Below, one piece after another: positions 18,777-61,444 of a DNA stretch of 64,000 nt (its first letter is position 1; the number at the start of each line of letters is the position of its first letter). The notes below the pieces were generated by a model that was given only the letters and a program-made list of their open reading frames with translations, was not told the origin of the DNA and did no database searches. Both the position numbers and the translations under genes were made by a program. The stretch is from the IMG/VR virus record IMGVR_UViG_3300009509_000009, positions 1 through 64,000 of that record; one strand, 5' to 3'. Source of the DNA: a virus.

Positions 18777-19790
18777 GTGGCTGAACGTCAGCATGAGGAT
18801 GATCTGTATCAGTTGCTTCGAGGCGTGAACAAGAATGAAGTCGCGCCTCGGGGCACTGATGCGGTTCAGCCTGCCGTCGCCTCTTATGACACCCTCATCG
18901 AGCCTCCCATAAAGGATGCTACGCCCGAGGAGGATGAGCCGACCAACGAGCCGACGGATAAAGTGCCAGAAGAGGACGGTCAGCCGCAGTCCCCAGAGGG
19001 TGGAGCCGATTACAAGCCGTTCACCCTTCGATCAGTATTCGCTCATCACGACTCTCACCCACTCCTGATGGACATGCTTCTCCTAGAGAAGTATGGACTC
19101 GACTGGTTGACGTGGGAGCCGGAGACGCTCTGGGATGCGATCTCGGAGGACTTCAAGACCACGGTAAGCACCAACAATGCCAGCATGATCCAAGCGGCGA
19201 AGACGTGCCACCTGGTCGAGACGCCTTGGGTAGCGTGGGAGATCTTCGTACCAGTCTGCCAGGCGTTCAACAACAACATTCCAAACTTCAGGACGTTCTT
19301 CAAACCTACGATTCCGCAGACGATGTTTGCGGTCGAGGTGATGAACTCTATCGACGACCGCAAGTTCAGCGAGGAGCTGGAGCGGTTCGTTGCTGCAGTC
19401 TTCCTGGACGCCAGCGTCTTCTACCTGCCGCCTCCAGTCGACTTCGCCCAGAAGATGGCGATGCAGATCGAGTATCGCTGTTCCAGATGTGGTAGAGTTG
19501 ATCTGGATGACGACAACCTCATGTGCGATTCCTGCGGCGCTCCTCAATCGGCGCTCAAGACGATTCCGAAGTGGGACCCCGAGCCTACGAAGAAGCGTTA
19601 TGAGCACATACTGTCGCAAGGAGAGGAGCATGATGTGCTGCAGGAGAAGGGGGTTGACGTCCAGGTTGCCAAGCTGCTGGTCGCCAGGAACTACCTGGAT
19701 TACAGGAAGAAGCAGCTGGCGGATCAACTAAAGGCGGTCGAGGATGAGCGACTACAACTACGATCTGGCTCTCGTAGACGGCCAGCTTGA
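18777..19790 (+). CDS. Hypothetical protein with zinc ribbon
   Basis: Start moved to the GTG after the previous stop; CSRCG...CDSCG. Confidence 0.65.
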   Translation: MAERQHEDDLYQLLRGVNKNEVAPRGTDAVQPAVASYDTLIEPPIKDATPEEDEPTNEPTDKVPEEDGQPQSPEGGADYKPFTLRSVFAHHDSHPLLMDMLLLEKYGLDWLTWEPETLWDAISEDFKTTVSTNNASMIQAAKTCHLVETPWVAWEIFVPVCQAFNNNIPNFRTFFKPTIPQTMFAVEVMNSIDDRKFSEELERFVAAVFLDASVFYLPPPVDFAQKMAMQIEYRCSRCGRVDLDDDNLMCDSCGAPQSALKTIPKWDPEPTKKRYEHILSQGEEHDVLQEKGVDVQVAKLLVARNYLDYRKKQLADQLKAVEDERLQLRSGSRRRPA

Positions 19791-20715
19791 CGAGTTTCAA
19801 AAGATCGCCTTCGTCGGTAGGGTGGCTCGAGCTCTTGGCCGTGGCACGGCTATGAGAGGTGCTGCCATAGGCGGAGGCATCGGTGCGTTGAGTGGCGGCG
19901 CTCTCGGAGCAGCTTCAGCTGACCCTTCACAGGGAACAATGGGCAGGGTTCAGGGAGCTATATCAGGAGCTCTGTCTGGCGGCATCCTTGGTGCTGGCAC
20001 CGGTACCGTAGCGACGAAGGCTGGTAGGCAGTGGATAGGACGTGCTGGTAAGGCGCAGGTGCACGGGCTGACTGGCTGGGTGCCCGGTTCAAGGAAAGCT
20101 GGCAAGGGATTCTTCGGACAGCACATGAATCCAGCAGAGAGGGCCAAGGCCCTCGAGGGCCTTGGCATCACCGCTCCGAAGGGACGACTGTCTCACGGTC
20201 AGGCGCTCGGAAAGATTCAGCAGGGCAGGCTTACTGGGAAGCTCCCATCGGGGATGCAGCAGCAGCTCGCCGATCTCTCCGTGGCACGTCACATGGCTCA
20301 GCAACAGCAGGTGAGCAAAGGACTCACGTCCGTACCAGGATTCGTCAAAGGAATGGTGAAGGACCCGACTGGCACAGCAAAGACTGGCCTCCTCGCCGCC
20401 GGCGGACTTGGTACAGCGATGACTCTTGGCTTCAGTGCTCCTGAGGCTATCCAGGCGGCCAAGGAAAGGGACATCAAGAGGCTCGGAGGATCTCTGGCGG
20501 AGACTGGATTCTACGCAATGGGCGGTGGTATCCCCATGCTTGGGTCCATGGCACTCGGAAGTGGTGTCAGACGTCTGGGGCAGGCTCCTGGCGCTCTGGT
20601 GGAGAAGGTGATGGGCCAAGGACCTCAGCCGGGTCAGCCGCAACGAACGATGGGTAGCGGCGCCCAGAGGGCTGCGGCTCAGAGGGCTGTTCACCACATG
20701 ACTAGGGAGGGCTGA
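19744..20715 (+). CDS. Glycine-zipper protein with DEFQKIA leader (putative internal/ejected virion protein)
   Basis: QLDEFQKIA followed by GAAIGGGIGALSGGALG and further GxxxG arrays. Confidence 0.65.
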   Translation: MSDYNYDLALVDGQLDEFQKIAFVGRVARALGRGTAMRGAAIGGGIGALSGGALGAASADPSQGTMGRVQGAISGALSGGILGAGTGTVATKAGRQWIGRAGKAQVHGLTGWVPGSRKAGKGFFGQHMNPAERAKALEGLGITAPKGRLSHGQALGKIQQGRLTGKLPSGMQQQLADLSVARHMAQQQQVSKGLTSVPGFVKGMVKDPTGTAKTGLLAAGGLGTAMTLGFSAPEAIQAAKERDIKRLGGSLAETGFYAMGGGIPMLGSMALGSGVRRLGQAPGALVEKVMGQGPQPGQPQRTMGSGAQRAAAQRAVHHMTREG

Positions 20716-20720
20716 GTCTG

Positions 20721-23030: not shown

Positions 23031-26000
23031 ATGGCCCGGCTAGACCCTAGAGAGGGGTTCGAGCTCCTCAAAGACAGGGTGACTACCGAGGTGAAGGCTG
23101 CGTTCCCCCAGGAGGGGAACGATCACATTCTCGACATCGAGAATGTGGAGATCCAGGACGAGCTGGACCCCGAGGATATTGAGGGTCAGAAGAAAGCGAA
23201 GCTCGGTGGATCAACCTGGGGAGTCCCCGTGAAAGCAGAGTTCGTCTTGAAGGACAAGGCGAGCGGCAAGGTCATCAACCGAAGTAAGATCAAGGTGGCG
23301 ACGATCCCGAAGCATACTCGTCGTCATTCCTTCATAGTCGGTGGATCTGAGTACCAGGTGGACAACCAGTGGCGGTTGAAGCCCGGTATCTACACACGTG
23401 TCGCGCAGAACGGTCAGCTCGAGTCACGGTTCAACTTCCAGGGCAAGATGAACCTCGATATGATCTTCGACCCCAAGAGCAGGAAGTTTCAGCTCAAGCA
23501 CGGTGGGTCGAAGCCGCCGCTCTATCCAATACTCAAGGCGGTTGGCGTTGACGACGACGCGCTACAGCAGGCGTGGGGCAAAGAGATCCTCAACGCCAAC
23601 AAGACAACGCCGAATGGAAAGGCGCTGAACGTAGAGAAGCTAGCGATCGGTTTCGCCAAGAGACTCGATCCAAACAAAGACGTCAAGAACTTCGACGACG
23701 CTGGAGATGTCATTCGTGAATACATGGGTACGGCGGAGCTCAGACCCGACGTGACCAAGCTCACGCTAGGCAAGGAGTTCAATACCATCACGCCTGAAGC
23801 ACTCACGAGGACGTCGGGTAGACTTCTTGGTGTAGCTAGAGGCGACAAGCCAGACGTGCGGGATGCTCTGCAGTTCAAAGATCTTCTCAGCACGGAGGAC
23901 TTCATCGCTGAGCGTCTTCAGCAAAGCGCCAAGATCATCAAGCGCAGGATACAGAACAACATAGATCGAAGGACCACCGTTCGTGAGATCGTGGGGCCAG
24001 ACATTTTCGATCGACCCGTCAAAGAGTTCTTCTCGAAGACGTCGCTGGCGAATACACCTCAGCAGGTCAATCCACTCGAGATGTTGTCCGGCCAGCAGCG
24101 TACCACTATCACTGGAGAGGGTGGAGTCAAGAGCGCACACAAGATCCAAGAGGACGCAAAGCTAGTAGATCCGTCACACTTCGGTGTGCTCGACCCACTA
24201 CACACTCCGGAGTCCGACAAGACAGGAGTGACACTACACCTTGCCATGAGCGCCGTGAAGAAGGGCAACAAGGCCTTCGTCCCACTGCACAATGTCAAGA
24301 CTGGAAAGGTAGAGTATCTCGATCCAGAGACGGTCAATGAGAAGATCGTGGCAATGCCGGATGAGGGTAGGTGGGACAAGGGTAAGTGGGTGCCCAACGC
24401 GAAGAAGGTCAAGGCGAGTACGCTGGGCAATGAGATTCGAGACGTCGACTCCTCCAAGGTCCAGTACGTCATGAAGAATCCTGGTCAGATGTTCTCTCTC
24501 GCCACCAACATGGTTCCGTTCCTCTCCTGCGACTCCCCGAATAGATCATCCATGGCTGGGAAGCAGATGGAGCAGGCGATCTCGCTGAAGTATAGAGAGC
24601 CGCCTCTAGTTCAGGTAGCGCGAGGAGACGGGACCAAGAAGACCTTCGACGAGTTCGTCGGGCGATATGCCTCTCATGAATCCCCAGTTGATGGGAAGGT
24701 GACCAACATCACTGACACGTTCATGGAGGTCAAGTCGGGGCGCAAGACACACAAGGTCCAGCTGTACAAGGACTATCCCCTCAATGACAAGAAGGGTCTT
24801 CTCCAGAGTACCCCTACGGTGAAGGTAGGGGACAAGGTGATGAAAGGGCAGACTGTAGCCGATACCAACTTCACAAAGGGCGGAGTCTACGCGCCTGGAG
24901 TGAACCTCAACATCGGGTACACGCCGTGGAAGGGCTACAACTTCGAGGACGGTGTGGTGATCTCTGAGTCTGCTGCGAAGAAGCTGACTTCAGAGCACAT
25001 GCACAAGAAGACCCTGTCCACAAAGGAGGCGAAAGCTCCCGGCAAGGAAGTCTTCATGTCCCACTTTGCCAGCAGTCTGGACAAGGAGCAGGCAGAGAAG
25101 CTGGACAGAGACGGCATCATCAAGCCGGGCATGAGGATCAGAAAGGGCGACACTCTCATCGCTGCAGTGGCCGACGCCCCGCCCACTACTGAGAATCAGA
25201 TGTTCAAGAATCTCCACCGATCATTGGTGCAGCCATTCGACAACCGATCTATCACCTGGGAAGAAGACCAGGAGGGTGAAGTCGTCAATGTCACCAAGAA
25301 GGGGAAGAAGATCCAGGTTCACGTCAAGACTGAAGAGCCGATGACTGTTGGCGACAAGATGGTTGGGCGCCACGGCAATAAGGGAATCGTCACCAAGATC
25401 TTGCCAGACAACGAGATGCCGTCGACCAAAGATGGCAAGCCCCTCGAGGTGCTGATGAATCCAATCGGTATTGCTGGTCGGATGAACATCGGTCAGGTGC
25501 TTGAGACAGCAGCCTCTAAGGTAGCTGAGAAGCGCGGACGCCCGCTCAAGATCACAAACTTTGGAGTCAGTGATAGCCGCACGGAGATCGAGAATCTGCT
25601 GAAGCGGCATGGAGTATCAGATCGAGAGACCATTGTAGATCCAAAAGACGGGACGGAGATAGAGGGCATCCAGGTTGGAAAGCAGTACATCCTCAAGCTC
25701 CAACACCAAGTAGATAAGAAGATGTCTGCTCGAGACAGAGCTGGCTACGATCGTAACTTGATCCCAAAGGGCGGCGGGAAGCACGGTGCTCAGGCGCTAG
25801 GAGCTCTCGGCATGTACGCCATGTTAGCTCACGGGGCTAAGCACAACATCCGTGAGATGCAGACCTACAAGTCTGATAAGGCGCAGAACGACGATCTTTG
25901 GAGCGCCATTCAGACTGGTGAGCCACTGCCTCCTCCGAAGACTACCTTCGGGTATCAGAAGTTCGAGTCCTACCTCAAGGGAATGGGCGTCGACACGCAG

Positions 26001-29000
26001 AAGGATGGGAACTCCCTGAATCTCATACCACTGACTGACAAGCAGGTGGAGGAGATGTCTTCTGGGGAACTCAAGGATGCGGGGCGGGCTGTTCGAGGGT
26101 ACAAGATTGGATCGAAGCGCAGAGGCTCAATAGATCCTGAGAAGTCTGGTCTATTCGATCCGCAGATCACCGGGGGCTTGGATGGCACCAGGTGGTCTCA
26201 CATCAACCTAGCAGAGCCAGTGCCAAATCCACTCTTCGAGAAAGCAGTCCGTAGTCTCACCGGGATTCGTGGACCTCAGTTCAATCGTCTGATCGAAGGC
26301 AAGGACGGCGTCGATAAAGACGGAAAGATAGTTCCTCCGGGTACTCAGGGAGCTCTCTACGGTCCTCAGTCCATTGGTCTCATGCTGGATAAGGTAGACA
26401 TCAACAAGGACCTGCAGGCCGCGCAAGCGAAGCTCCCAACCATCAAGAATCGTCAGCCACTGAATGAGACACGCCGAAAGATCAAGTACCTGCAGGCCCT
26501 GCAGAAGGTTGGCCTGTCCCCTCGTGAAGCGTACATGACCTCGAAGGTTCCAGTTCTTCCTCCAGCGATGAGGCCTCTATCAATGCTCGAGGACGGAGCT
26601 CTGCAGTTCGATGATCTCAACCAGCTCTACAAGGACGTGGCCCTACTTGATCAGCAGATCAAGGAGATGCCCAGCTTCGCGCCAGACAGCGCGAAGGCAG
26701 AGGCTAGGGCTGACGTATACGATCGGATGAAGGCCCTAACTGGTCTTGGTGGCTCCCTCAAGGGAAGGTACAAGGGGATAGCCGACATCATAGCCGGAGA
26801 CAATCCGAAAAGTGGTTACGCCCAGGACAAGCTGATCAAGAGGAAGATGGACCTGTCCATGAGGTCCACTATCGTGCCCGAGCCTTCATTGTCCTTGGAC
26901 GAAGTAGCCATTCCTCGCAAGGCAGCTATGGAGATCTACAAGCCCTTCATCGTCAGGGAGCTCCGTATGTCCACGGGTTCCGGACCTCTCACTGCCAAGG
27001 AGATGGTGGAGGCCAATCACCCGGCTGCTCGGGAGGCCCTGAACCGAGTGGTTGAGGAGCGACCCCTCCTCATGAAGCGCGACCCAGTACTCCACAAGTA
27101 CGGCATTCAGGCCTTCAAGCCTAAGATCGTAGAGGGCAAGGCCATCAAGATACACCCCCTTGTGTGCTCCGGATTCAACGCAGACTTCGACGGGGACACC
27201 ATGAGCGCCACAGTACCCATCACCGAGGAGGCTGTGGATGAAGCCCGAAAGATGTTTCCGTCGAAGATGCTGTTCAATCCAGCCACCAAGGGAGTCATGT
27301 ACACGCCGGCCCATGAAGCTCAGGTTGGTCTCTACATGATGACGGACGTAAAGAAGAAAACGAACTACCAGTTCAAAGATCAAGCCGCCCTCGAGCGCGC
27401 AGTGAAAGAGAAGAAGCTGGGTCCTAATGATGCTGCCAAAGTAGGCGGGAACTTCACAACACTAGATCGGTTGAGGCTCAACGCCACCCTGCCAACACAA
27501 CTGCAGGGAGGAAAGCTGCTCACTGATCTAGACTACCGCTTTACCAAGAAGGACCAGGGTCAGTTCTTCAAGCAGATGGCAGAGACGGACGAGAAGGGTT
27601 TCCCGATCAACATAGATAAGATGAAGGACGTGGGAAACCTGAAGGTCACTCATGGAGGGTTCAGCTTCGGGCTCAGTGACTTCAAAGTACACAAGGACAT
27701 TCGAGATCCGATCATGCGTGAGGCGGATAGGAGAGCGTCAGCTCTGGATTTGTCCAAGAAGAACGACATGAACAAGTTCGTCGACATCTATGAAGGTGCG
27801 ATGACCAAGATGAAGGATCGGCTGGATGTCAGAGTCAAGGAGCTCAGCACAAAGAACTCTTTGGCAATGCTCGAGACGGCAGCTGGGATCAAGGGTAAAG
27901 GGTACGCCCAGCTCACCACAGCTCCAGGTCTGTTCGTTGACGCAAAGGGAGAGGTAGTCGCCAGTCCAGTGAGGAAGTCGTACTCTGAGGGTCTCTCCGC
28001 TTCTGACTACTGGGCGTCAGTGAGCGGTGGACGCAAAGGAATCATCCAGCGAACGCAGTCTACAGCCAAGCCAGGCTATCTCACCAAGCTCATGATGAAC
28101 TCGGTGATGGACACCTTGGTGCAGGAGGACGACTGCGGTACCGATCGTGGGGTCAGTCTCAACATAGATGAACCAGACCTTATCGGTAGGTACACTACGG
28201 CCCCAATAAAGATCGGAAGCACGACGTTCAAGCCAGGAACTCTGGTCACTGCTGACATCGTCAACAAGGCCAAGAATGCTAAGGTCACCAGGATCGTTAG
28301 CCGATCTCCGATGCGTTGCAATCACGCACACGGCGTATGCGCGAAGTGCATGGGGCTCAACGAGAGAGGAGAGCACCACGGGCTCGGAACCAACATCGGC
28401 GTGCTGGCTGCCCAGGCTATCGGAGAGCGCGGAACCCAGCTCGCTATGAAGGCGTTCCACTCAGGCGGGGTGTACGAGGGTAAAGCCGCGCAGGAGAGGT
28501 CGATCACTGGTGGTGGGTTCGAGCGCGCCGTCACTCTGCTCTCCATGCCGAAGCAAGTGAAGGGATCTGCCAAGCTGGCTATCGCTTCTGGTAAGGTAGA
28601 GGCGGTGAAGAAAGATCCAGCGGGTGGGTTCGATGTGAAGATAGGCGGCGTCAAGCACTACATTCCTGCTGATCGTACACCGCTACCCGATCTGAAGAAG
28701 GGTAAGGCTTTCCGAAAAGGTGATCCTCTGACTAAGGGTCCTATCAATCCGAGGGAGCTGCTTCCTCTTACCAACATGAACAAGGTCCAGGGATACCTGG
28801 CTTCGGAGCTACACAGTCTCTATGCCCCAGAAGGAATCAGACGTAGAAACTCCGAGGTCCTCGTCAGGTCACTATCCAACGTCACCAAGGTCGAGGACTC
28901 TGGAGATAGCTCGTCGTGGATCAGGGGAGACTTTGCTCCGACTGCTGTAGTCAACGAGTGGAATCGTAAGAACGCCAAGCGCGGGCTGAAACCTGTACAG

Positions 29001-29213
29001 CACACGCCAGTTCTTCGTGGGGTCAAGACTATCCCCGAAGATGTGCAGACAGATTGGCTAGCCCGATTGAATCATGAGAACATCAGGTCTACCCTAGTAG
29101 AAGCGGCACAACAGGGTTGGGCGAGTAATCTTCACGGTGATCACCCAATCCCGCCGATGATCGTGGGTAAGGAGTTCGGCAAGGGAACAAAGGATAAGCC
29201 CTGGTCGTACTAA
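23031..29213 (+). CDS. rpoBC: Single-chain DNA-directed RNA polymerase, fused bacterial-type beta and beta' subunits
   Basis: Beta motifs GYNFEDG, GDKMVGRHGNKG, NPIGIAGRMNIGQ, KLQHQV; beta' motifs RSTIVP, RDPVLH, GFNADFDGD, GGRKG...AKPGYLT, DCGT/CNHAHGVCAKC, AAQAIGERGTQLAMKAFHSGG. Confidence 0.97.
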   Translation: MARLDPREGFELLKDRVTTEVKAAFPQEGNDHILDIENVEIQDELDPEDIEGQKKAKLGGSTWGVPVKAEFVLKDKASGKVINRSKIKVATIPKHTRRHSFIVGGSEYQVDNQWRLKPGIYTRVAQNGQLESRFNFQGKMNLDMIFDPKSRKFQLKHGGSKPPLYPILKAVGVDDDALQQAWGKEILNANKTTPNGKALNVEKLAIGFAKRLDPNKDVKNFDDAGDVIREYMGTAELRPDVTKLTLGKEFNTITPEALTRTSGRLLGVARGDKPDVRDALQFKDLLSTEDFIAERLQQSAKIIKRRIQNNIDRRTTVREIVGPDIFDRPVKEFFSKTSLANTPQQVNPLEMLSGQQRTTITGEGGVKSAHKIQEDAKLVDPSHFGVLDPLHTPESDKTGVTLHLAMSAVKKGNKAFVPLHNVKTGKVEYLDPETVNEKIVAMPDEGRWDKGKWVPNAKKVKASTLGNEIRDVDSSKVQYVMKNPGQMFSLATNMVPFLSCDSPNRSSMAGKQMEQAISLKYREPPLVQVARGDGTKKTFDEFVGRYASHESPVDGKVTNITDTFMEVKSGRKTHKVQLYKDYPLNDKKGLLQSTPTVKVGDKVMKGQTVADTNFTKGGVYAPGVNLNIGYTPWKGYNFEDGVVISESAAKKLTSEHMHKKTLSTKEAKAPGKEVFMSHFASSLDKEQAEKLDRDGIIKPGMRIRKGDTLIAAVADAPPTTENQMFKNLHRSLVQPFDNRSITWEEDQEGEVVNVTKKGKKIQVHVKTEEPMTVGDKMVGRHGNKGIVTKILPDNEMPSTKDGKPLEVLMNPIGIAGRMNIGQVLETAASKVAEKRGRPLKITNFGVSDSRTEIENLLKRHGVSDRETIVDPKDGTEIEGIQVGKQYILKLQHQVDKKMSARDRAGYDRNLIPKGGGKHGAQALGALGMYAMLAHGAKHNIREMQTYKSDKAQNDDLWSAIQTGEPLPPPKTTFGYQKFESYLKGMGVDTQKDGNSLNLIPLTDKQVEEMSSGELKDAGRAVRGYKIGSKRRGSIDPEKSGLFDPQITGGLDGTRWSHINLAEPVPNPLFEKAVRSLTGIRGPQFNRLIEGKDGVDKDGKIVPPGTQGALYGPQSIGLMLDKVDINKDLQAAQAKLPTIKNRQPLNETRRKIKYLQALQKVGLSPREAYMTSKVPVLPPAMRPLSMLEDGALQFDDLNQLYKDVALLDQQIKEMPSFAPDSAKAEARADVYDRMKALTGLGGSLKGRYKGIADIIAGDNPKSGYAQDKLIKRKMDLSMRSTIVPEPSLSLDEVAIPRKAAMEIYKPFIVRELRMSTGSGPLTAKEMVEANHPAAREALNRVVEERPLLMKRDPVLHKYGIQAFKPKIVEGKAIKIHPLVCSGFNADFDGDTMSATVPITEEAVDEARKMFPSKMLFNPATKGVMYTPAHEAQVGLYMMTDVKKKTNYQFKDQAALERAVKEKKLGPNDAAKVGGNFTTLDRLRLNATLPTQLQGGKLLTDLDYRFTKKDQGQFFKQMAETDEKGFPINIDKMKDVGNLKVTHGGFSFGLSDFKVHKDIRDPIMREADRRASALDLSKKNDMNKFVDIYEGAMTKMKDRLDVRVKELSTKNSLAMLETAAGIKGKGYAQLTTAPGLFVDAKGEVVASPVRKSYSEGLSASDYWASVSGGRKGIIQRTQSTAKPGYLTKLMMNSVMDTLVQEDDCGTDRGVSLNIDEPDLIGRYTTAPIKIGSTTFKPGTLVTADIVNKAKNAKVTRIVSRSPMRCNHAHGVCAKCMGLNERGEHHGLGTNIGVLAAQAIGERGTQLAMKAFHSGGVYEGKAAQERSITGGGFERAVTLLSMPKQVKGSAKLAIASGKVEAVKKDPAGGFDVKIGGVKHYIPADRTPLPDLKKGKAFRKGDPLTKGPINPRELLPLTNMNKVQGYLASELHSLYAPEGIRRRNSEVLVRSLSNVTKVEDSGDSSSWIRGDFAPTAVVNEWNRKNAKRGLKPVQHTPVLRGVKTIPEDVQTDWLARLNHENIRSTLVEAAQQGWASNLHGDHPIPPMIVGKEFGKGTKDKPWSY

Positions 29214-29223: not shown

Positions 29224-29616
29224 ATGGATGATCAACTGTACAAGGAAGCCATGTACTCTGGATTCTTCGACGAGCTCGGACTGCTCGAGAAGCAACAGAT
29301 GTTCGAGAAGCAGGCTGCGGGTCTTGGTACCTTAGTCAAGGGCTTCCGTCAGCTGGGCAAGGATCCGACGAAGGCCCTCGGTGGTGTTCGTAGAGCCTGG
29401 GAGGTCGGTGTTCGTAGAGGAGCTGGTCTGGGTAGAGGACAGGCTGGGCCTCTCCAGGGAGGCGTGGCGAACAGACTCCGCCAGGCGTGGGGTGGCGTGA
29501 AGAACGTCGCCAAGACACCGGCGGGCCAAGCTATTGGAGCTACGGCGCTGGGCGCCGGAGCGCTGGGCGCCGGGGCCGTGGGAACTGGGTACGCTGCTGG
29601 CCGTGCTCAGGGTTAG
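29224..29616 (+). CDS. Small Gly-rich protein with FFDEL...EKQAA leader
   Basis: AAGGAG RBS; amphipathic basic segment, C-terminal GAGALGAGAVG zipper. Confidence 0.65.
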   Translation: MDDQLYKEAMYSGFFDELGLLEKQQMFEKQAAGLGTLVKGFRQLGKDPTKALGGVRRAWEVGVRRGAGLGRGQAGPLQGGVANRLRQAWGGVKNVAKTPAGQAIGATALGAGALGAGAVGTGYAAGRAQG

Positions 29617-43739: not shown

Positions 43740-44036
43740 ATGTCGGGCCTGGGTGTGAGAACGGTGGAAGCTATGATGGACGAGCTACAGAAGATCGCTA
43801 AGTTTTCTGTTTCAGCTCCGTCCATCAAGGCTCCACCTGCACCTGGAGGAGATGGATCGGTGCTGAAGGCAACTCCAGCGTCGCCTGTCTCCCCGAAAGC
43901 GATCTCTGCCAAGGCTCTGAAGTCCACGAACCTAACGAAGACGAACTACACCAACGTCTCCACTGAGGTGCCAGCACCACAGATCGGTCAGACGATGGAA
44001 CAGAAGGCTTTGCAGCCTCCTGTAGTTCGGTCATAG
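43740..44036 (+). CDS. Small protein with MMDELQKIA leader
   Basis: Leader followed by Pro/Ser/Lys-rich low-complexity body. Confidence 0.6.
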   Translation: MSGLGVRTVEAMMDELQKIAKFSVSAPSIKAPPAPGGDGSVLKATPASPVSPKAISAKALKSTNLTKTNYTNVSTEVPAPQIGQTMEQKALQPPVVRS

Positions 44037-48685: not shown

Positions 48686-49147
48686 ATGGCCTCTTGGGAA
48701 AAGCGTAAGTTCGGATCCTCGCAGGAGCTCGAGGAGTATCTCAATGGCGCCCTCATCAGCAGCCTCAATCTGCACGATGGCGCGTTCATGGACGGTCAGA
48801 CGTTCGTGTTTGAGGTAGACGGTGGTGGCGACACCACGGTCAACTTCCCTGCCAAGAGCAGGAAGTGGACTCTCCAGGAGATCATCGACCAGATCAACGC
48901 CTCTGAAGCCGGTCTTGCTCATATCAGGACTGAAGTAAGACCGGGCTCCAACAAACCGATCCGGAAGCTCAAGCTGCAGAAGGACCTGACTTCGTTCGTG
49001 GTCAAGAACACAGGTACTGCCAACGATGAACTTGGATTCCCCACCGGCTCCAACACACCAGCAGTGTATGTCGCTCCGGCTGATCTCGAGTTCATCAAGC
49101 AGGTCCCCGGAGAACAGGACAGCTGGATCGTCTGGAGGTACGCATAA
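48686..49147 (+). CDS. Putative structural protein
   Basis: GGAGG RBS; beta-rich with IIDQINA motif like sheath-associated domains. Confidence 0.55.
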   Translation: MASWEKRKFGSSQELEEYLNGALISSLNLHDGAFMDGQTFVFEVDGGGDTTVNFPAKSRKWTLQEIIDQINASEAGLAHIRTEVRPGSNKPIRKLKLQKDLTSFVVKNTGTANDELGFPTGSNTPAVYVAPADLEFIKQVPGEQDSWIVWRYA

Positions 49148-51636
49148 TGTCAGTCTTCGACAAGCTCGTTGAGGAGCGGTATGAGATTCCGTTCAGCACG
49201 CGAGCGGCATACTTCAATGCGATCATGCAGCCCTTCGGAGTTCCTCCAGAACCCGTGTTCACCAAAGAGGCTCAAGCGGGCATGTTGAAGATCGCTCTGG
49301 TCCTCAACAAAGCCAAGGACGAAGCCGAAGCTATCCAGGCCATGCAGAGAGAGGCCCTGAAGGACCCCAACGTTCAGCAGGCTATGGACTATCAGCAGGC
49401 TTTGGCCGAGCGCGAAGATGCCATGGCTCAGCTCGAGCAGATGAACCAACAGGTCATCGAGGCTGAGACGAGAGCTCAAGAGGCAGAGCAGCGAGCCATG
49501 CAGGCTGAGCAGGGGGCAGAAGAGACCGGCATGCAGGCTCAAGAACTTCAAGCTCAGCTCGAGCAGGAGCAGCAGGGCAGGCAAGAGGCCACTGCGATGG
49601 CCGTGCAGGCTCGTGATCAGAGTCTGCAGGAGCAGATCTCACTTCAGGAGCAGAAACAGACCATCGCGCAGCAGGCTGAAGCATTCCAGCAGCAAGCCAA
49701 TATGCTCAGCCAACAGCTTCGTCAAACAGCGGCTATGCCGACAGCACCGGCAGCTCCTCCCCCTGGTGGGGCTCCTGGTGCGGAGGAGATGCCTCCACCA
49801 GCCACTGCGGATGCTGCTCAAGAACAGCAGGAAGCTGCAAATGCGGAGCAGGAAGCCGCCGTCCAAGGTGAGCAAGCTCAGCAGGCTACTGCTGAAGATC
49901 AGGCGAAGCAAGAGCAGATGGCTGCCCAGGGTGGCGGTCCAAGCCCCGAAGAGGAGGCAGCGGCCCAAGAGGAGCAGGCTGCTGCTCAAGAGCAGGCCAT
50001 GGCGCAGGAACAGCAGATGGCCGAACAACAGGCCATGGCTGAACAGGCCATGCAGTCGGCAGCAATGCCTAAGCAAGGGATGGCTCTCTTCTTCCAGAAA
50101 GCGGCGATGTTGAAGAGGGCCCAAGGAGAAGATGTGGTTCCGCCGGCTCCGCCGGTTGCTTCAGCCCCCGCTCAAGAGAGTCCTCTAGAAGACGAGGACG
50201 ATGAGGAGGAATACGACGAGGTAGGAGAACTCCTGGATGAGATCGTCGACATCAGAGAAAGACTCATCCAGCTTGGTCTCACTCCAGAGGAGATCTCTGA
50301 GTACATAGACCTTGTTGATCAAGGGGATGAAGAAGCTGCCGATGAAGGACTCCAAGAGGCTATGCAGTCTGAGGGTCCTGTGAAAGCAGCGGCAGCCAGG
50401 ATCAGTCTCACGAGACTATTCCATCTCAACAAGACTGCGTCAGCTGCTATGTCCCCCCAAACTCGAGGAGCTATCATCGGCGCGGCCATCGGCGCCCTCG
50501 GTGGCGTAGCCTCTGGTCTCGTCCCTGGTGCTCTGGCTGGAAAGAGCGACTCTCCTGGAGCTCCTACAGGCGGTGCTCTTCGTGGAGGAGCCTCCGGAGC
50601 CATGGCTGGCGCCGTGAGCGGAGCCACGGGTGGAGCTCTCCTTGGACATGCTCTCGGGAGCGGGGAAGTTGGGAAGCAGATGGGCAAGGCCATTGGCGGT
50701 GGCGCTCTGGTTCTTGGTGCTCCGATCGCCGGGGCTCTCAGTGGTCTTCGCAGCGCAAGATCACAGGACTACCGAGTCAAGCAGGCCGCCATGGAGAAGG
50801 CCGCCGCCAATTTCGGGCTCGGCCCGAAGTCACTCAACCTGGCCAAGCCCGGCACCAGAGTGCAAGCCCGCATGACCAACGCTCGCAATGTTGGTAAGCC
50901 CACCGGCAAGCCGGGGAACATCGGCCAGCTCACTGAGTCGGCCTTCATGCCGAAGACCGGATCGGAGAAGTGCTCCGAGATGGGGAAGTGCTCTGGCTGT
51001 GGCAAGATGGCCAAGCTCTCTGAGATGGGGAAGTGTGGCATGTGCGGCGCCAAGCACGCAGCGATGAGCAAGAGCGCTGCGGGGGTCATGGTTTCCCCAA
51101 AAGGATCACGCCGCCTCACTGAACAAGAGGAGGCGGCACTCCTTATGAATGCAGAGCGACTCCCCAAAGAGATCATCGCTGATGTGAACCGTGGGCTCGC
51201 TGGGACCATGCAGGACATGATGCCAAAGACCGCCGGTGAGGTCACCAACAGGCTGCTTCGGTTGGCCAAGCGCAAGGCTGTTGGTGCGGGAGTTGGTGCA
51301 GTAGCTGGCGGCGGTGTTGGTGCTGCCGAGGTTGCGGGCCACGAGATCAAACATAAAGGCAAGGGCAAGGACGTTCCGTCTGATAAGGAGCTCAAGGTTG
51401 AGGGAAAGCTCCACGCAGCGAAGCTCAAGGCTCAGAGTGATCCGTCCTACGCCAATAAGATCAACGTCGCTCGGCTTCGGCTGAAGCGAGACATAGAGCA
51501 GACCTCGAGGGAGAATCCCAAGGGTCATATTGCTCGACGAGCTGCGGAAGGTGCAATCGTTGGTGCGATTGCCGAAGGACACGCACGCGGCCTTGGAAGA
51601 AAAGGACTTGAGGCTCTGAAAGGGGCTGGGCGTTAG
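49147..51636 (+). CDS. Large KxA-segmented protein (Gln-rich coiled coil, acidic block, glycine zipper, Cys peptide, basic block)
   Basis: Compositionally distinct blocks separated by KEA, KIA, KAA, KRA, KTAS, KQAA, KHAA, KSAA, KTAG. Confidence 0.7.
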   Translation: MSVFDKLVEERYEIPFSTRAAYFNAIMQPFGVPPEPVFTKEAQAGMLKIALVLNKAKDEAEAIQAMQREALKDPNVQQAMDYQQALAEREDAMAQLEQMNQQVIEAETRAQEAEQRAMQAEQGAEETGMQAQELQAQLEQEQQGRQEATAMAVQARDQSLQEQISLQEQKQTIAQQAEAFQQQANMLSQQLRQTAAMPTAPAAPPPGGAPGAEEMPPPATADAAQEQQEAANAEQEAAVQGEQAQQATAEDQAKQEQMAAQGGGPSPEEEAAAQEEQAAAQEQAMAQEQQMAEQQAMAEQAMQSAAMPKQGMALFFQKAAMLKRAQGEDVVPPAPPVASAPAQESPLEDEDDEEEYDEVGELLDEIVDIRERLIQLGLTPEEISEYIDLVDQGDEEAADEGLQEAMQSEGPVKAAAARISLTRLFHLNKTASAAMSPQTRGAIIGAAIGALGGVASGLVPGALAGKSDSPGAPTGGALRGGASGAMAGAVSGATGGALLGHALGSGEVGKQMGKAIGGGALVLGAPIAGALSGLRSARSQDYRVKQAAMEKAAANFGLGPKSLNLAKPGTRVQARMTNARNVGKPTGKPGNIGQLTESAFMPKTGSEKCSEMGKCSGCGKMAKLSEMGKCGMCGAKHAAMSKSAAGVMVSPKGSRRLTEQEEAALLMNAERLPKEIIADVNRGLAGTMQDMMPKTAGEVTNRLLRLAKRKAVGAGVGAVAGGGVGAAEVAGHEIKHKGKGKDVPSDKELKVEGKLHAAKLKAQSDPSYANKINVARLRLKRDIEQTSRENPKGHIARRAAEGAIVGAIAEGHARGLGRKGLEALKGAGR

Positions 51637-51658: not shown

Positions 51659-52969
51659 ATGCTCAACCAGTGGCTGAATGATCTGGCGCAGGAGGAACAC
51701 GAGAAGACGGCCTCCGCCCAGTTCGAGGAAGTTCTCAAGGACATGGACATCCCTGAGCTCAGGGCGTTCTTGGACATCGGCAAGGAGAAGACGGCGTTTG
51801 ATCCCCGCCTGGCGCTTGCCTCTGGAGCTCGAGGAGCTCTTGGCGGAGCCGTTGGTGGCGGCCTTCTCGGCGCTGCTGGGGGAGCTCTCGGTGCCGAACA
51901 GGGTCAGCGTGGAGAGGGCGCCATTGCTGGTCTCCGACGCGGGGCGGCCATTGGAGCCATTGGTGGTGGCCTCGCATCTGGCATAGCGGGCGGCGTAGCT
52001 GGTAAGGGTTCCGCCTACGATCCTGCCGCACAGCGTCAGATGCAGGAAGACTTGATCGACGAGCAGCTGAGCCGCATAAACGCGGGAAAGGAACCCATGG
52101 GCATTGGCGAGACCATGCGGAAGATGAGGAGTAGGATCAGCCCTCGAGACATGAAGATCCAACAAGCTGACATGGCCGCTCAACTCGCTTCTCGAGCTGG
52201 TGCTGCTGGCGCTGGATATCACGCTGGTGCTACCCTACCAGATCAAGAGGTAGCCAAAGAAGCATCGGCCATGTTCGCTGCCGCTGATGCCGCCGGACGG
52301 TCACTGGCCCACTCTATCGCCAAAGAGGCCAAGGTGGATCCAGAGGTGCAGGCAGCTGCGATCAGAGGCGGAGCTATCGGGGGTGGGCTCGAGGGCGCTG
52401 CCCGAGGAATCCTGCACGGCGGGGGTATTCCAGGGGCTGCCATTGGCGGTGGTTTTGGCGCTGGATTCGGAGCGCTTGGTGGCCGTATACATGAGTCTGA
52501 CTTTGCTGAGCGTCACCCGATTGCTGGTCGGTGGGTGGCTCCCGTTCTGGTAGGCGGCCTTGGTGGAACCGCTGGGGCTTACCTCGGAGCAGAGGGAGCC
52601 AGGGCCAAGCAACGAGGAGACCTTGAGGCCGTCGAGCAGGAGGCTGCGGCTGCAGCTCCTGGCGGAGGTATGGCCGGCACCCTCGGAGCAGGCGCTGGAT
52701 CTCTTGCCAGGAAGGCCAGAGAGGCTAAGAGAGAAGCAGAGGCAGCCTACGGCTCGGCCAAGACCGCCTCGTTCCGTGGTGCCATCCAGAAGCTGGCTGC
52801 AGAGGGCAGGCTCCGCACCTTCACTGAGAAGACGGCAGCCATGACTCCGAATGACGTCGCCAAGGTACAGGCTGTCAGCGACGCCATGAAGAAGACAAAG
52901 GGCATGTCCCTTCAGCAGCGCAAGCAGGTCATGAAGGGCGTCGGCAAGGCCATTCCTGGCGGCAAGTAG
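51659..52969 (+). CDS. Glycine-zipper protein, KxA-segmented
   Basis: EKTAS, EKTAF, KEAS, KTAS, KTAA; several GxxxG arrays; FAAADAAGRSLAHS. Confidence 0.7.
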   Translation: MLNQWLNDLAQEEHEKTASAQFEEVLKDMDIPELRAFLDIGKEKTAFDPRLALASGARGALGGAVGGGLLGAAGGALGAEQGQRGEGAIAGLRRGAAIGAIGGGLASGIAGGVAGKGSAYDPAAQRQMQEDLIDEQLSRINAGKEPMGIGETMRKMRSRISPRDMKIQQADMAAQLASRAGAAGAGYHAGATLPDQEVAKEASAMFAAADAAGRSLAHSIAKEAKVDPEVQAAAIRGGAIGGGLEGAARGILHGGGIPGAAIGGGFGAGFGALGGRIHESDFAERHPIAGRWVAPVLVGGLGGTAGAYLGAEGARAKQRGDLEAVEQEAAAAAPGGGMAGTLGAGAGSLARKAREAKREAEAAYGSAKTASFRGAIQKLAAEGRLRTFTEKTAAMTPNDVAKVQAVSDAMKKTKGMSLQQRKQVMKGVGKAIPGGK

Positions 52970-52972: not shown

Positions 52973-53857
52973 TTGATGATCGAAGTCACCAACCTGAAAG
53001 TGTACTCCTTGAGTAAGGATCATCTGGACCTTACTTGGGAGATCGCTGATACCAACCTCGATCCCCACGATTTCACGTTCACGGTCGAGAGGAGTGAGGC
53101 TCAGTATGGCCCGTTTGATCAGATCAGTGAGCCGTTCAGCGACAAGTACAATTTTAGGGACGTGATCGTCAATCTCATGAGTCGGTGGAGGACATACTTC
53201 TACCGCATTCGTGTCACTCGCAAGCTCGACAGCAAAGAAGCGGTGTCGAGCTCGGCTAGCCTTGGAGCTAAGCCGGACTTGATCGCCTGGGAGGTTCGTC
53301 GACAAGAAACCATTCTGTTCCGTGAGCACATCGGGAGGAGATGTTGGACCTTCCCGGCGAAGACTTTTGGCCAGCGCTGTAGATGCTTCGATAAGGTTAC
53401 TGGACAGCGGTTGGTGTCTCAGTGTGAGACCTGTTACGACACCAGCTATGTCGGCGGCTACCTTGATCCTGTTGAGATGTACATCCAATTCGATCCAAGT
53501 CCAAAGCATATCGAGCCTGAGCAGCTTCAGGAAACTGAGCAGCAGAACACTACGGCTCGTACGCTGTACTTTCCAGTGCTGAAACCAAGGGATATAATCG
53601 TTGAGAGTGAGAACCGGAGGTGGAGAATTGAGCGCGTTTCTACCACCCGTAGGATGCAAGCAGTCCTCCACCAAGAGCTAGTTCTCCATGAGATTCCAGG
53701 GACTGACATTGAGTTCAAGATCCCGATCAACATCGACGATCTAAAGAACTTCGAGGCCAGTCCAGAACGCGAGTTCACCAATCCGCAGGACCTCGAGGTC
53801 CACGACGACGCGAACTGGTTGACCCGCACTTTGAGGTCGCACGGGTACGAGGGCTGA
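52973..53857 (+). CDS. Putative neck/head-closure protein with N-terminal FN3-like domain and Cys motif
   Basis: LDLTWEI...FTVERS...YFYRIRV; GQRCRC...CETCYDT; LKPRDIIVE. Confidence 0.6.
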   Translation: MMIEVTNLKVYSLSKDHLDLTWEIADTNLDPHDFTFTVERSEAQYGPFDQISEPFSDKYNFRDVIVNLMSRWRTYFYRIRVTRKLDSKEAVSSSASLGAKPDLIAWEVRRQETILFREHIGRRCWTFPAKTFGQRCRCFDKVTGQRLVSQCETCYDTSYVGGYLDPVEMYIQFDPSPKHIEPEQLQETEQQNTTARTLYFPVLKPRDIIVESENRRWRIERVSTTRRMQAVLHQELVLHEIPGTDIEFKIPINIDDLKNFEASPEREFTNPQDLEVHDDANWLTRTLRSHGYEG

Positions 53858-54330
53858 TGTACTACCTGTTCTCATCGTTCAGCGACGAGCTGATCAAGAT
53901 AGCCCAACAGGAGCCTGGGTTTCCTGATCCTCGTATGGTGGAGATCGCTCAGCGCCAGCAGAGTACCCCAAAGCAGAAGTACCTCAACAAAGAGGTTCTG
54001 AAACAGTTCGGAAAGAACACTCTGGCTATTGGAGCTGGTACTGCCGCTGGTGAGGGCCTGGCCACACTCACGAATATGGGTTTGGAGGCCGGGGCGAAGC
54101 GTCTCGGTCATAAGCTCCACCCCGCAGTACCTCACGTGGTTCGAGGAGTAACCATCCCAGTCATGGGTGCTGGTTCCCTGATGGCCTACAGGGCAATGAG
54201 GCAGAGAGCTGATGAGAAGCTGGAGGAGGCACGTCAGCGCTCCGCAGCTGAGAAGGGTGAGAAGCCCACAGACGTGAGCCTCGAAGACTGGGAGAAGATC
54301 AATCCTGGTTATGGTGGAGGTGCTTTGTGA
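53857..54330 (+). CDS. Small membrane-type protein with FSDELIKIA leader
   Basis: Leader then two Gly/Ala hydrophobic segments. Confidence 0.65.
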   Translation: MYYLFSSFSDELIKIAQQEPGFPDPRMVEIAQRQQSTPKQKYLNKEVLKQFGKNTLAIGAGTAAGEGLATLTNMGLEAGAKRLGHKLHPAVPHVVRGVTIPVMGAGSLMAYRAMRQRADEKLEEARQRSAAEKGEKPTDVSLEDWEKINPGYGGGAL

Positions 54331-55166: not shown

Positions 55167-55176
55167 GAGAGGACCA

Positions 55177-59791: not shown

Positions 59792-60544
59792 ATGGCCGGT
59801 TTCGCACAATGGAATCCCCTGAACCACTTCGTTCAGGGTGGGATGCCCGACGGGCGCTTCGTCTCCGGAGCCTTGACTCTGGTCGCCGCTGGTCCACCTC
59901 GTCTGGCCCAGATGGGAGGTAGCGTTCAGAGCGCTGCCAATGCGATCAACGACGAGGCGGCGGATATCGTCTTCCCGATCGGGATCACCCAGAACATCAA
60001 CATGTCCCAGAACAAGACCTTCATGAGGATCTGGGAGCTGGGATCCGAACGCAGCTACTTCATCGGTGGCCGCACAGTCGGGCAGTTGGCTCTCTCGAGA
60101 GTCTACTACCACGGCCCATCACTTCTGCGAGTGCTCTACGCCTACTACAGGGACGAGCGCGGCAGGGTCCAGGTCCCGTGGGTCTTCCCGAATCTGGGCG
60201 CCACTCAGATGTTCAACGAGCACGATGTGATCGTGCCTCCTGGCTACGAGAACCTGTTCCTGAACCTGGCATCAGACCTGTTCAACCAGCCCATCGGGCT
60301 CTTGGTCTACGTCAGGGACTCGAACCTCAAGACCATGGGGGCCATCTACCTCGAGGCCTGCTACATCCCGAACCACACGTGGGCGACGGATGCACAGGGC
60401 ACCATCGTGCAAGAGACCGTGGCAGTTCAGTACGAGCGTGTCATGCCGGTCAACGTCTCGGCAGTCACTCTCGTTACGGGGCTAGCCAAGTCCACGGGTG
60501 GCGCTGAGTCGGGCGGCGGCTTCCACCTCACCCTCGGCTTCTAG
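59792..60544 (+). CDS. Putative tail tube protein
   Basis: IGITQNINMSQNK...IWELGSERSYFIGGRTVG; near sheath; GAGGAGG RBS. Confidence 0.7.
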   Translation: MAGFAQWNPLNHFVQGGMPDGRFVSGALTLVAAGPPRLAQMGGSVQSAANAINDEAADIVFPIGITQNINMSQNKTFMRIWELGSERSYFIGGRTVGQLALSRVYYHGPSLLRVLYAYYRDERGRVQVPWVFPNLGATQMFNEHDVIVPPGYENLFLNLASDLFNQPIGLLVYVRDSNLKTMGAIYLEACYIPNHTWATDAQGTIVQETVAVQYERVMPVNVSAVTLVTGLAKSTGGAESGGGFHLTLGF

Positions 60545-60556
60545 ACCCGGAGGTGG

Positions 60557-61444
60557 GTGATGCTGCAAGACCAGAGGTTGATGGCTGACGTCCTTGTGGA
60601 GATGTCCAATGGGCACTTTCGCAAGCTGGCGTCCCTGTCTGCCAGGACGAGGGGAGCCGTCGAGCTCGGCAAGGTCGCTGCAGCGCGCTTCTCTCCTCCT
60701 ACAGAGGATGAGTACCTCCAGAAGATGGCGGCTTCTCAGCTGGGAGAAGCGTACCTTGAGAAGTTGGCTCGAGCTGTCATCAACGAGGAGGTCTCCTGGG
60801 ACGACCTTTCTGACCTGGAGAAGACTGCCCTCGGCATTGGTGGTATCGGCAGAGCCCTCAAGGGCGTTGGCCAGTTCTTCACCAAGGGCAAGACTGTCAG
60901 GATGGCTGGTGGCCCAGGAAGCGCCTCGGGGGGCATAGGGGCTCGTCTCCGGAGCGCTTGGAACAGGGGCACAGGCCAGCAGTGGAAGAACCTGGCCGGC
61001 AGCAAGGGCGGAGGCCCTGGTATCTCAGGGCCAAGGACGCAGACCTTCAAGGGCGGCACGAGGCCCGCAGGGGCTGGAGCAGGCCCGTACAGAGGGGCTG
61101 CAGCTCAGGGACCAGCCACGGCGGTACGACCTCCTCCCCAGCAGGCCGGCGCTCAGATGCGCCAGAGGTTCCAGCAGCTCAACCAGGGAGCTCAGCCACT
61201 GCAGGGTAACAGAGCGGTCCAGAGGGCCTCTGCAGCGGCCGGAGGAACTCCAGGTGCCAGGAAGCCTCTTCTCTCCTGGAGGACGAAGGCGGGCCTGGGA
61301 GCCGCAGCTGTGGGCGCCGGAGGCCTCTACCTCGGAGGCAAGGCTCTGGACACGGCCAACACCTTCCTCCATCAGCAACAGCCGGGAGCCTACCAGTACG
61401 GTATGGGGGCTCCAACCCCCTTCATGCAGCCCCAAGGCATGTAG
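60557..61444 (+). CDS. Gly-rich basic protein with N-terminal tandem KxA helices
   Basis: RKLAS, GKVAA, QKMAA, EKLA, EKTAL, then GIGGIGRALKGVGQFF and a C-terminal hydrophobic helix. Confidence 0.7.
   Translation: MMLQDQRLMADVLVEMSNGHFRKLASLSARTRGAVELGKVAAARFSPPTEDEYLQKMAASQLGEAYLEKLARAVINEEVSWDDLSDLEKTALGIGGIGRALKGVGQFFTKGKTVRMAGGPGSASGGIGARLRSAWNRGTGQQWKNLAGSKGGGPGISGPRTQTFKGGTRPAGAGAGPYRGAAAQGPATAVRPPPQQAGAQMRQRFQQLNQGAQPLQGNRAVQRASAAAGGTPGARKPLLSWRTKAGLGAAAVGAGGLYLGGKALDTANTFLHQQQPGAYQYGMGAPTPFMQPQGM

Follow-up and report, generated by a model that had tools for sequence, protein, structure and literature searches.

Glycine-zipper and cationic amphipathic proteins with K-x-A leaders as probable processed head cargo of an uncultured contractile-tailed phage

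In phage T4, the prohead protease cuts at L/I-x-E. The unrelated proteins IPI-III and Alt carry a short N-terminal capsid-targeting tag that ends at this consensus, which also directs the trimming of capsid and core proteins, and the T4 internal proteins are a precedent for basic proteins processed inside the head. In adenovirus (protein VI) and the nodaviruses (gamma peptide), a maturation protease exposes a capsid-internal amphipathic helix that is released at entry. Herpesvirus assemblins cut after alanine (YLQA-T, VQA-S; PMC4498786). The large myoviruses phiKZ, 201phi2-1 and SPN3US have a virion RNA polymerase; many of their head proteins lose propeptides, and proteins are ejected in large mass (PMC5694885, PMC7411985, PMC10052503). 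In the podovirus ejectosome (T7 gp14/gp15/gp16; P22 gp7/gp20/gp16; N4 gp51/gp52 with vRNAP), soluble proteins stored in the capsid have marginally hydrophobic helices that insert after ejection. The ejection proteins of T7 and N4 insert into membranes, and those of N4 travel with the virion RNA polymerase, the gp52 pore being formed from an amphipathic helix (PMC8954989, PMC13434306).

The window analyzed here (the whole stretch of 64,000 nt) comes from an uncultured, contractile-tailed phage of approximately 180 kb that encodes its own RNA polymerase. A sequence-only reading had listed six glycine-zipper or cationic segments. All six strings were found in + strand ORFs, the strand of every ORF given below with both ends: cargo 1 (19744..20715, 323 aa), cargo 2 (29224..29616, 130 aa), cargo 3 (39936..40292, 118 aa), cargo 4 (49147..51636, 829 aa), cargo 5 (51659..52969, 436 aa) and cargo 6 (60557..61444, 295 aa). 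The coordinates originally attached to the segments are the starts of these real ORFs; the quoted sequences span 19810-20016, 29317-29379, 39999-40061, 50467-50748, 51833-52003 and 60830-60889. The head-module set to which they belong comprises approximately 8-10 proteins in this phage clade. The six have syntenic orthologues in five complete genomes, and orthologues at 25-35% identity retain the leader, K-x-A and GxxxGxxxG. DNA of 57% G+C yields many long alternative-frame ORFs, in which Gly/Ala-rich proteins and K-x-A could occur by chance, and cross-BLAST matches between the cargo proteins were purely compositional. The probability of such an artefact is nevertheless negligible: it is refuted by the conserved orthologues, among them 364 distinct cargo 1 representatives with conserved non-glycine motifs, and the motif statistics had flat controls.

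The six proteins had been called a family. Composition and leader logic are common to all six, but homology among them was not detectable, so that on sequence grounds they share composition, not ancestry. Pfam and PHROG searches assigned no family to any of them and found no homology to the T4 internal proteins, T7 gp14-16 or N4 gp51/52. There were no matches to Pfam holin or ejection-protein families, nor to the Pfam glycine-zipper HMMs PF13488, PF13441 and PF05433 at E ≤ 10.

The sequence-only reading had predicted that the segments are released by cleavage, which is supported indirectly by a candidate protease, conserved site positions and avoidance of the motif in mature parts. ORF 40755 (40755..42764) is the probable prohead protease gene. 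The protease domain, which has the gp21/assemblin fold, spans approximately aa 49-260 and is continued by a helical C-terminal half. The best PDB match of its AF2 model was T4 gp21 (5jbl; Z 9.0, rmsd 3.1, 133 aa), followed by six herpesvirus proteases (Z 4.9-6.7); the Pfam S77 HMM gave no match. At least 1200 relatives exist (1212 found), in which H122, H123 and S179 are invariant. The assemblins (V/L/Q-x-A followed by S/T) have the same P1 alanine, and serine or alanine is often found at P1′ here; assemblin, too, is a protease fused to a scaffold part, and here K-x-A sites separate the protease from its helical C-terminal extension. The P3 lysine, in contrast, is specific to this clade of bacterial viruses.

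In 17 head-module proteins, K.A was enriched 2.1-times (z 8.5) and K.A[SA] 4.65-times (z 11.6), and controls were flat. K-x-A has a fixed place near the N-terminus in capsid protein, protease and cargo alike, in relatives as well as here. In the major capsid protein (46094..47218, phrog_2522), the conserved EGKEK-x-A places the site at aa 24-26 (46163-46171); the protease has its own conserved site, K32-V-A34 (40848-40856). Both are kept in five relatives and in the distant, cultured Salmonella phage Arash, whose gp226 reads K-E-A at the capsid-protein position. K-x-A was absent from the retained glycine-rich parts of the cargo (0 observed, 6.75 expected, P = 0.0004). The mature part of the cargo 1 alignment had 27 sites against 109 expected, and that of 141 independent cargo 1 representatives had 116 against 370. 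This strong avoidance argues that the glycine-rich parts survive processing. Together with the gp21/assemblin-fold protease and the conserved positions of the motif, it makes release of the leader by cleavage at K-x-A well supported, if indirectly; the cut could fall after the lysine instead of after the alanine.

The segments had also been placed directly after K-x-A. This is exact for three of the six (KIA/FVGR, KQA/AGLGT and KTA/LGIGG, the slash marking the end of the site), whereas the other three begin later, the gap being 3 residues in ORF 39936, 9-11 in ORF 49147 and 12 in ORF 51659.

The cargo-1-type leader is conserved and amphipathic and reads A-F-x-D-E-L-x-K-x-A, and the leaders of cargo 2, 3, 5 and 6 all terminate in K-x-A. 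None of the six N-termini resembles a signal peptide, as had been noted before. A matrix built from cargo 1 orthologue leaders gave three hits (0.4 in shuffled sequences) and found the N-termini of two further proteins: a 98-aa protein (43740..44036) with the MMDELQKIA leader of cargo 1, which its orthologues retain, and a 157-aa protein (53857..54330) with the leader FSDELIKIA and Gly/Ala-rich hydrophobic segments. The proposal that acidic leaders keep the proteins soluble found no support. N-termini are acidic in four of the six cargo proteins, and the charge in the cargo 1 family is approximately −2 for the leader and +14 to +17 for the mature part. Because the same amphipathic leader stands on unrelated proteins, it looks more like a capsid-targeting and cleavage signal than a solubility device. 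This recalls the T4 tag, likewise short, N-terminal and ending at a protease consensus that also trims capsid and core proteins, and the protease fold is shared. The tag and site differ from those of T4 (K-x-A instead of L/I-x-E), and the site differs also from that of the phiKZ group, in which the protease gp175/gp245 cuts at S/A/G-x-E.

Cargo 1, encoded directly upstream of the portal gene, has a leader of 22 residues (19744-19809) that ends in K20-I-A22, followed by a glycine-zipper helical hairpin (aa 39-91, 19858-20016) and additional glycine-rich stretches at 20383-20442 and 20503-20568. Of 80 related loci, 76 have an orthologue ahead of the portal gene. In alignment A2, G43, G47 and G79 are invariant, and K20, G51 and G75 are present in at least 90% of sequences. 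A profile search recovered the 364 cluster representatives at E ≤ 1e-30; the leader is present in 141 of 146 representatives, with the site ending at approximately residue 20, and GxxxGxxxG in 140 of 141. In the AF2 model (pLDDT 76) the protein is helical throughout, with the zipper formed by helices 36-58 and 61-90; the model had no PDB fold match. A structure search of the Atlas aligned residues 16-96 to Gly-zipper_YMGG/Omp clusters, which we take as a lead only. The i, i+4, i+8 glycine ladder in predicted helices is shared with bacterial glycine-zipper domains; the cargo, in contrast, is viral, has no lipoprotein signal and stands in a capsid context.

Cargo 3 has a leader of 18 residues (39936-39989) ending in KAA, followed by a cationic, glycine-rich amphipathic helix (39999-40061; muH 0.64, P < 0.001); the windows of highest moment begin at residues 22-30. 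Its orthologues in relatives G001-G003 retain EK-x-A and then a glycine-rich amphipathic segment. A weak match to Moricin was not significant (E 0.094).

Cargo 2 lies between a virion-type RNA polymerase and a gp5-like spike. Its leader (aa 1-31, 29224-29316) ends in KQA and is followed by a cationic amphipathic segment (29317-29379) and an uncharged glycine-rich stretch (29515-29601); orthologues in G001-G003 retain the FFDELG leader, a (K/R)-x-A site and a glycine-rich amphipathic start. The polymerase is a single beta-beta′ chain of 2060 residues (23031..29213; Pfam Rpb2_6, Rpb1_2 and Rpb1_5) in the virion module and is probably co-packaged as cargo. A single-chain polymerase, a smaller genome and the absence of PF12699-type inner-body paralogues set this phage apart from the phiKZ group, for which glycine zippers have not been described. 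Cargo 6 is encoded after the sheath gene (phrog_279) and a tube-like gene. It has five K-x-A sites within aa 1-91 (60557-60829) and none beyond, an amphipathic cationic segment (60830-60889) and a C-terminal uncharged glycine-rich stretch (61289-61339). The orthologues in G001-G003 (564-970 aa) are Pro/Ala-rich and retain the HF-x-KLA start and K-x-A with a glycine-rich amphipathic segment; the C-terminal glycine-rich hydrophobic stretch is retained in them and in a possible 212-aa counterpart in G004. With one gene beside the spike and the other after sheath and tube, cargo 2 and 6 might be tail-lumen or baseplate proteins, tape-measure- or pilot-like, that reach the membrane from the tail, and hydrophobic glycine-rich segments are common in tape measures. 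We consider this quite improbable: both proteins have the K-x-A leader logic of the capsid protein and protease, and the cargo 6 orthologues, Pro/Ala-rich and between 212 and 970 aa long, are unlike a length-determining helix.

Cargo 4 is acidic and Q/A/E-rich in its N-terminal half and has 13 K-x-A sites in the whole protein, one of them K429-T-A431 (50431-50439); three glycine-zipper stretches follow in 50467-50748 and a fourth at 51277-51327. Orthologues are present in five complete relatives. Cargo 5 begins with an acidic leader (aa 1-46, 51659-51796) in which KTA occurs twice, and has glycine-zipper stretches in 51833-52003 and 52406-52708; G002-G005 encode glycine-zipper proteins at the syntenic position. 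The internal sites of cargo 4 and 5 would suit another reading, in which the proteins are scaffold or core material, cut up and expelled in maturation, with nothing functional kept or ejected. Neighboring ORFs 42846, 44047, 45209, 16790 and 31074 have 5-14 K-x-A sites each, as a degraded scaffold would; the first (42846..43730) is an acidic protein, encoded ahead of the capsid gene where a scaffold gene might lie, with seven sites and one glycine-zipper stretch (43425-43481). For the cargo itself this is very unlikely, given that K-x-A is avoided in the glycine-rich parts and that in cargo 1, 2 and 3 it is restricted to the leader. That the six are processed, capsid-internal cargo is, judged from their sequences, likely.

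The zippers and the cationic helices that the sequence-only reading described are real and conserved. Among 35 + strand proteins, 16 of 17 uncharged glycine-rich stretches of at least 17 residues were concentrated in six; the seventeenth, not a zipper, is in the sheath. GxxxGxxxG helices are conserved in cargo 1, 4 and 5, whereas in cargo 2, 3 and 6 the predicted new N-terminus is formed by a cationic amphipathic helix rich in glycine (helical hydrophobic moments 0.51-0.65, P ≤ 0.002 against shuffles). The suggestion of membrane insertion fared less evenly. Kyte-Doolittle values of the cargo stretches (1.0-1.9, KD19) were comparable with those of uncharged stretches in T7 gp14/gp16 (0.05-1.44), and exceeded 1.6 in only 3 of the 16 glycine-rich stretches. 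Wimley-White octanol sums, in contrast, were all positive, which is unfavorable for bilayer insertion and less favorable than in the T7 gp14/gp16 membrane segments. In sequence properties, the cargo helices resemble the marginally hydrophobic stretches of ejection proteins for which membrane insertion is established. Unlike the podoviruses with an ejectosome, this phage is contractile-tailed, judged by its sheath gene; its cargo has a far higher glycine content, and its propeptide logic is not known from T7 or N4.

The mature parts have a net charge of +6 to +24 (+14 to +17 on average in the cargo 1 family), which fits DNA binding equally well. Processed internal head proteins might therefore work in the capsid or on DNA, in charge neutralization, DNA condensation or protection, or an inner-body-like assembly, with the zippers serving tight helix-helix packing. 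The marginal hydrophobicity, the confident helical core of cargo 1 in AF2 and the precedents of T4 internal and phiKZ inner-body proteins agree with such a role, which we regard as rather unlikely. Against it, the most conserved feature, long uncharged GxxxGxxxG stretches, is not one that DNA binding requires, and cationic amphipathic helices exactly at the predicted new N-terminus resemble membrane-active peptides. In T4, too, the proteins kept in the head are basic and would enter the host along with the DNA, but they are globular, whereas the cargo here, known from sequence, is glycine-zipper or amphipathic.

The best overall explanation, which we favor modestly, is head cargo processed at K-x-A, ejected and possibly membrane-inserting. 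Each precursor would begin with a short leader, in most cases acidic and amphipathic, that probably steers the protein into the assembling prohead. The ORF 40755 protease would probably cut the leader off after the alanine of K-x-A, and the same code would trim the capsid protein, the protease itself and scaffold-like proteins. The parts predicted to be retained, strongly basic and Gly/Ala-rich, with GxxxGxxxG hairpins or a new N-terminal cationic amphipathic helix, would remain in the capsid with DNA and polymerase and probably be ejected at infection. Their marginally hydrophobic helices could then, more speculatively, insert and oligomerize in the host envelope in the manner of the podovirus ejectosome. 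Membrane activity after ejection is possible, at rather less than an even chance. That the cargo builds a defined channel or compartment, as first proposed, is speculation and unlikely, and a phage with a contractile tail may not need a channel derived from the head. For cargo 2, 3 and 6 the nearest match to the proposed action is adenovirus protein VI and the nodavirus gamma peptide; those, however, belong to eukaryotic non-enveloped viruses and are not homologous, and a lytic function here would be by analogy. It is very improbable, though conceivable, that the leaderless zipper and amphipathic peptides are maturation-primed membrane remodelers, with a mode of action like that of adenovirus protein VI or of a fusion peptide, that wrap incoming DNA and the co-ejected polymerase in host-derived membrane as a phiKZ-like early-infection vesicle.

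The evidence suggests that the kind of system is that of protease-processed internal or ejection proteins and that this variant is new. The protease relatives and the cargo 1 representatives all come from undescribed phages of approximately 180 kb, and a readable protease code would make mature virion proteins predictable from sequence throughout the clade. If the freed helices are membrane-active, they would be a phage counterpart to the maturation-primed lytic peptides of animal viruses and, if the explanation holds, a handle on how the polymerase and DNA cross the inner membrane in a contractile-tailed phage.

Phage Arash has the same motif and similar proteins, and ORF 40755 is 36% identical to its gp222. 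Its glycine-rich proteins resemble the cargo in composition, but BLAST detects no homology between them and cargo 1-6; only w40292 and gp221 match. In Arash virions, the subunits homologous to the single-chain RNA polymerase are the most abundant proteins by mass spectrometry (PMC10585845). Besides the polymerase, the protease homologue and three glycine-rich proteins with K-x-A (gp213, gp221 and gp224) were detected there, in a permissive list of 116 proteins termed structural that has no peptide-level data. With this motif and these proteins in a cultured phage, the idea is directly testable.

The best reading of these data is that the phage carries a protease-processed, capsid-internal set of cargo proteins, the retained parts of which are glycine-zipper or cationic amphipathic helices. 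Protein sets of this general kind are already known from T4, phiKZ/SPN3US, T7, and N4. The new elements here are the glycine-zipper cargo, the leader, and the K-x-A code; literature searches found them described nowhere (the glycine-zipper search covered open-access literature and returned nothing relevant).

The virion module spanned 16.8-61.4 kb on the + strand; the source record is 79.7 kb long, with an estimated completeness of 43%, and the window covers its first 64 kb. The module includes genes for the portal (20721-22604, phrog_64), a single-chain beta-beta' RNA polymerase of 2060 aa (23031-29213, Pfam), a gp5-like spike, the large terminase, the major capsid protein (46094-47218), and a tail sheath (55150-58602, phrog_279), all on the + strand; the sheath marks a contractile-tailed phage. 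Portal relatives in IMG/VR numbered 182, many of them on contigs of 170-195 kb. Because ORF 52973 as anchor gave two loci only, structural blocks were assembled instead from five relatives with complete or near-complete genomes (G001-G005), which were syntenic across the entire virion module. One of them carried a second, partial capsid-protein-like ORF (G003:C1:102998-103399; 50% identical over residues 3-136). The only cultured relatives found were remote ones: Salmonella phage Arash, with 28% identity in the capsid protein, and Vibrio phages D69, D148, and D181, with 32% in the polymerase. In the 187-kb Vibrio phages D181 and D148, the polymerase relatives were interrupted by homing endonuclease genes; the Arash counterpart of the single-chain polymerase consisted of two separate genes.

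The K-x-A motif was enriched 2.1-times in 17 head-module proteins (z = 8.5), and K-x-A followed by S or A was enriched 4.65-times (z = 11.6). The K-x-A enrichment was absent from other structural proteins and from minus-strand genes, and the control motifs R-x-A, A-x-K, and E-x-A were flat. In the five relatives and in Arash, both the capsid protein (EGKEK-x-A) and ORF 40755, the predicted prohead protease, carried a K-x-A at a constant N-terminal position. Downstream of the leaders the motif was avoided: none occurred in mature cargo 1, 2, 3, and 6 (+ strand ORFs 19744, 29224, 39936, and 60557) or across the zipper regions in cargo 4 and 5 (ORFs 49147 and 51659), vs. 6.75 expected (P = 0.0004). 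The cargo 1 family showed the same, with 27 vs. 109 expected in an alignment of 44 sequences and 116 vs. 370 expected (SD 17.5) in 141 independent representatives at 50% identity. Enrichment at the leader boundary with depletion downstream is expected from selection on a real cleavage site, and we regard site avoidance as the strongest new evidence that K-x-A would act as a protease code. The depletion also argues that the Gly-rich parts would survive processing. Two proteins without assigned function (16790-18010 and 31074-33089) contained 14 K-x-A sites each, far over expectation, and are candidate core or scaffold proteins subject to heavy processing.

ORF 40755 (40755-42764) had 1212 relatives, in which H122, H123, and S179 were invariant. 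The closest match to its AF2 model was gp21, the prohead protease of T4 (Z = 9.0; rmsd 3.1 across 133 residues), followed by the VZV, HSV-1, HCMV, KSHV, and EBV proteases (Z = 4.9-6.7); gp21 was also the top Foldseek match (E = 0.06), and Peptidase_S77/S78 were the nearest named clusters in the Atlas. As in the herpesvirus protease-scaffold fusion, the protease is fused to a helical C-terminal half of approximately 400 aa, with K-x-A sites between the two. The cut could fall after the Lys of K-x-A rather than after the Ala. Herpesvirus assemblins cleave after Ala (pseudorabies virus sites YLQA-T and VQA-S; PMC4498786), and there is therefore precedent within this fold for a cut after the Ala. 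Many ORF 40755 homologues of 950-1150 aa bear intein/LAGLIDADG domains (PF14528, PF05203, PF14890).

The cargo 1 orthologue was located directly upstream of the portal gene in 76 of 80 loci. A word-indexed search for cargo 1 homologues returned eight matches and was swamped by low-complexity words, so a full HMM search was used instead, giving 364 cluster representatives at E ≤ 1e-30. The leader was present in 141 of 146 cargo 1 representatives, with the site ending at residue 20 (IQR 19-20) and the consensus l-A-F-x-D-E-L-x-K-x-A. Mean charge in the family was −1.5 to −2.3 in the leader and +14 to +17 in the mature part. A matrix built from distant cargo 1 orthologues alone also detected two unrelated proteins, ORFs 43740 and 53857, by their N-termini. 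Cargo 2, 3, 5, and 6 had leaders of differing sequence, all of which ended in K-x-A and were kept in orthologues. We read the leader as a probable targeting signal plus cut site, because a conserved amphipathic tag of ten residues exceeds the needs of a protease; the T4 capsid-targeting sequence likewise joins a targeting tag to a cleavage site. The sequence-only reading had assigned the acidic leaders the task of keeping the proteins soluble; nothing was found in favor of this.

All six quoted segments were present in ORFs of the window, and none of the six N-termini resembled a signal peptide, as that reading had held. The positions it gave were ORF starts, the segments themselves lying at 19810-20016, 29317-29379, 39999-40061, 50467-50748, 51833-52003, and 60830-60889. 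Those of cargo 1, 2, and 6 did follow K-x-A immediately, and the others began 3, 9-11, and 12 residues on. Uncharged stretches ≥17 residues long and ≥25% Gly were concentrated in six of 35 + strand proteins (16 of 17 stretches; ORFs 19744, 29224, 42846, 49147, 51659, and 60557), and the 17th was a non-zipper stretch in the sheath. The cargo 2, 3, and 6 segments were cationic, with helical hydrophobic moments of 0.51-0.65 (P ≤ 0.002 vs. shuffles), and in cargo 2, 3, 4, and 6 amphipathicity over the whole protein peaked in windows that started 2-12 residues past a K-x-A site. The six proteins do not form a homologous family: matches among them were compositional and appeared only with filters off, so common ancestry was rejected. 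No cargo protein could be assigned to a family in PHROGs or, at E ≤ 10, in Pfam, and a Moricin match to cargo 3 in Pfam was not significant (E = 0.094). Cargo 6 was considered as a tape-measure protein and judged unlikely to be one. Residues ~606-632 of cargo 4 (49147-51636) form a Cys-rich motif resembling a zinc ribbon, kept in the G001 orthologue. On the − strand, ORF 37541-38116 (191 aa) combines a coiled coil and a basic tail with two TM-like stretches rich in Gly; weak Pfam matches to Phage_holin_7_1 (E = 0.11) and Gly-zipper_YMGG (E = 0.087) point to a possible membrane or holin-like protein.

In mature cargo 1, G43, G47, and G79 were invariant and G51 and G75 occurred in at least 90% of sequences; RFGQRQxHGLTG and GLTSxPG were conserved non-Gly motifs. 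The AF2 model was all-helical (pLDDT 76), with the zippers forming helices 36-58 and 61-90; Foldseek gave no fold match in the PDB (best E = 3). Residues 16-96 aligned in the Atlas to bacterial Gly-zipper_YMGG/Omp clusters, a lead only, and the Pfam Gly-zipper HMMs did not match the cargo proteins. One member of the cargo 1 family, P0199 (1114 aa), had eight matched stretches and is a multi-module or fused version of the glycine-zipper protein.

The Gly-rich stretches were marginally hydrophobic (KD19 1.0-1.9; Wimley-White octanol sums positive). By the identical measure, uncharged stretches of T7 gp14 and gp16, which insert into membranes (PMC8954989), scored 0.05-1.44. N4 gp51 and gp52 are ejected alongside the virion RNA polymerase and make channels in bilayers, and in the model of the gp52 pore, amphipathic helices are arranged in a ring (PMC13434306). 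We consider membrane action of the cargo following ejection reasonable as a hypothesis and less likely than not; the main rival is a DNA-associated role of these proteins. It is speculative that the cargo builds a channel or a compartment for early infection; an early vesicle does occur in phiKZ-type phages, but one published account of it names no membrane-active injected protein.

Indirect evidence on virion content comes from Arash, where mass spectrometry of virions found the polymerase subunits to be the most abundant proteins and also detected gp222, which is homologous to the protease, along with three Gly-rich proteins bearing K-x-A: gp213, gp221, and gp224 (PMC10585845). That study lists 116 proteins, and its supplement consists of annotations rather than peptide-level data, so it has no bearing on cleavage. 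BLAST-detectable Arash homologues were limited to gp221 (matching window ORF w40292), the protease, the capsid protein, the portal, the sheath, a tube-like protein, and two others. Arash gp212 (51 aa, annotated as hypothetical; 6959-7114 of record L093) has a short acidic leader ending in K-x-A, then a Gly-rich cationic peptide, and resembles a miniature of cargo 2.
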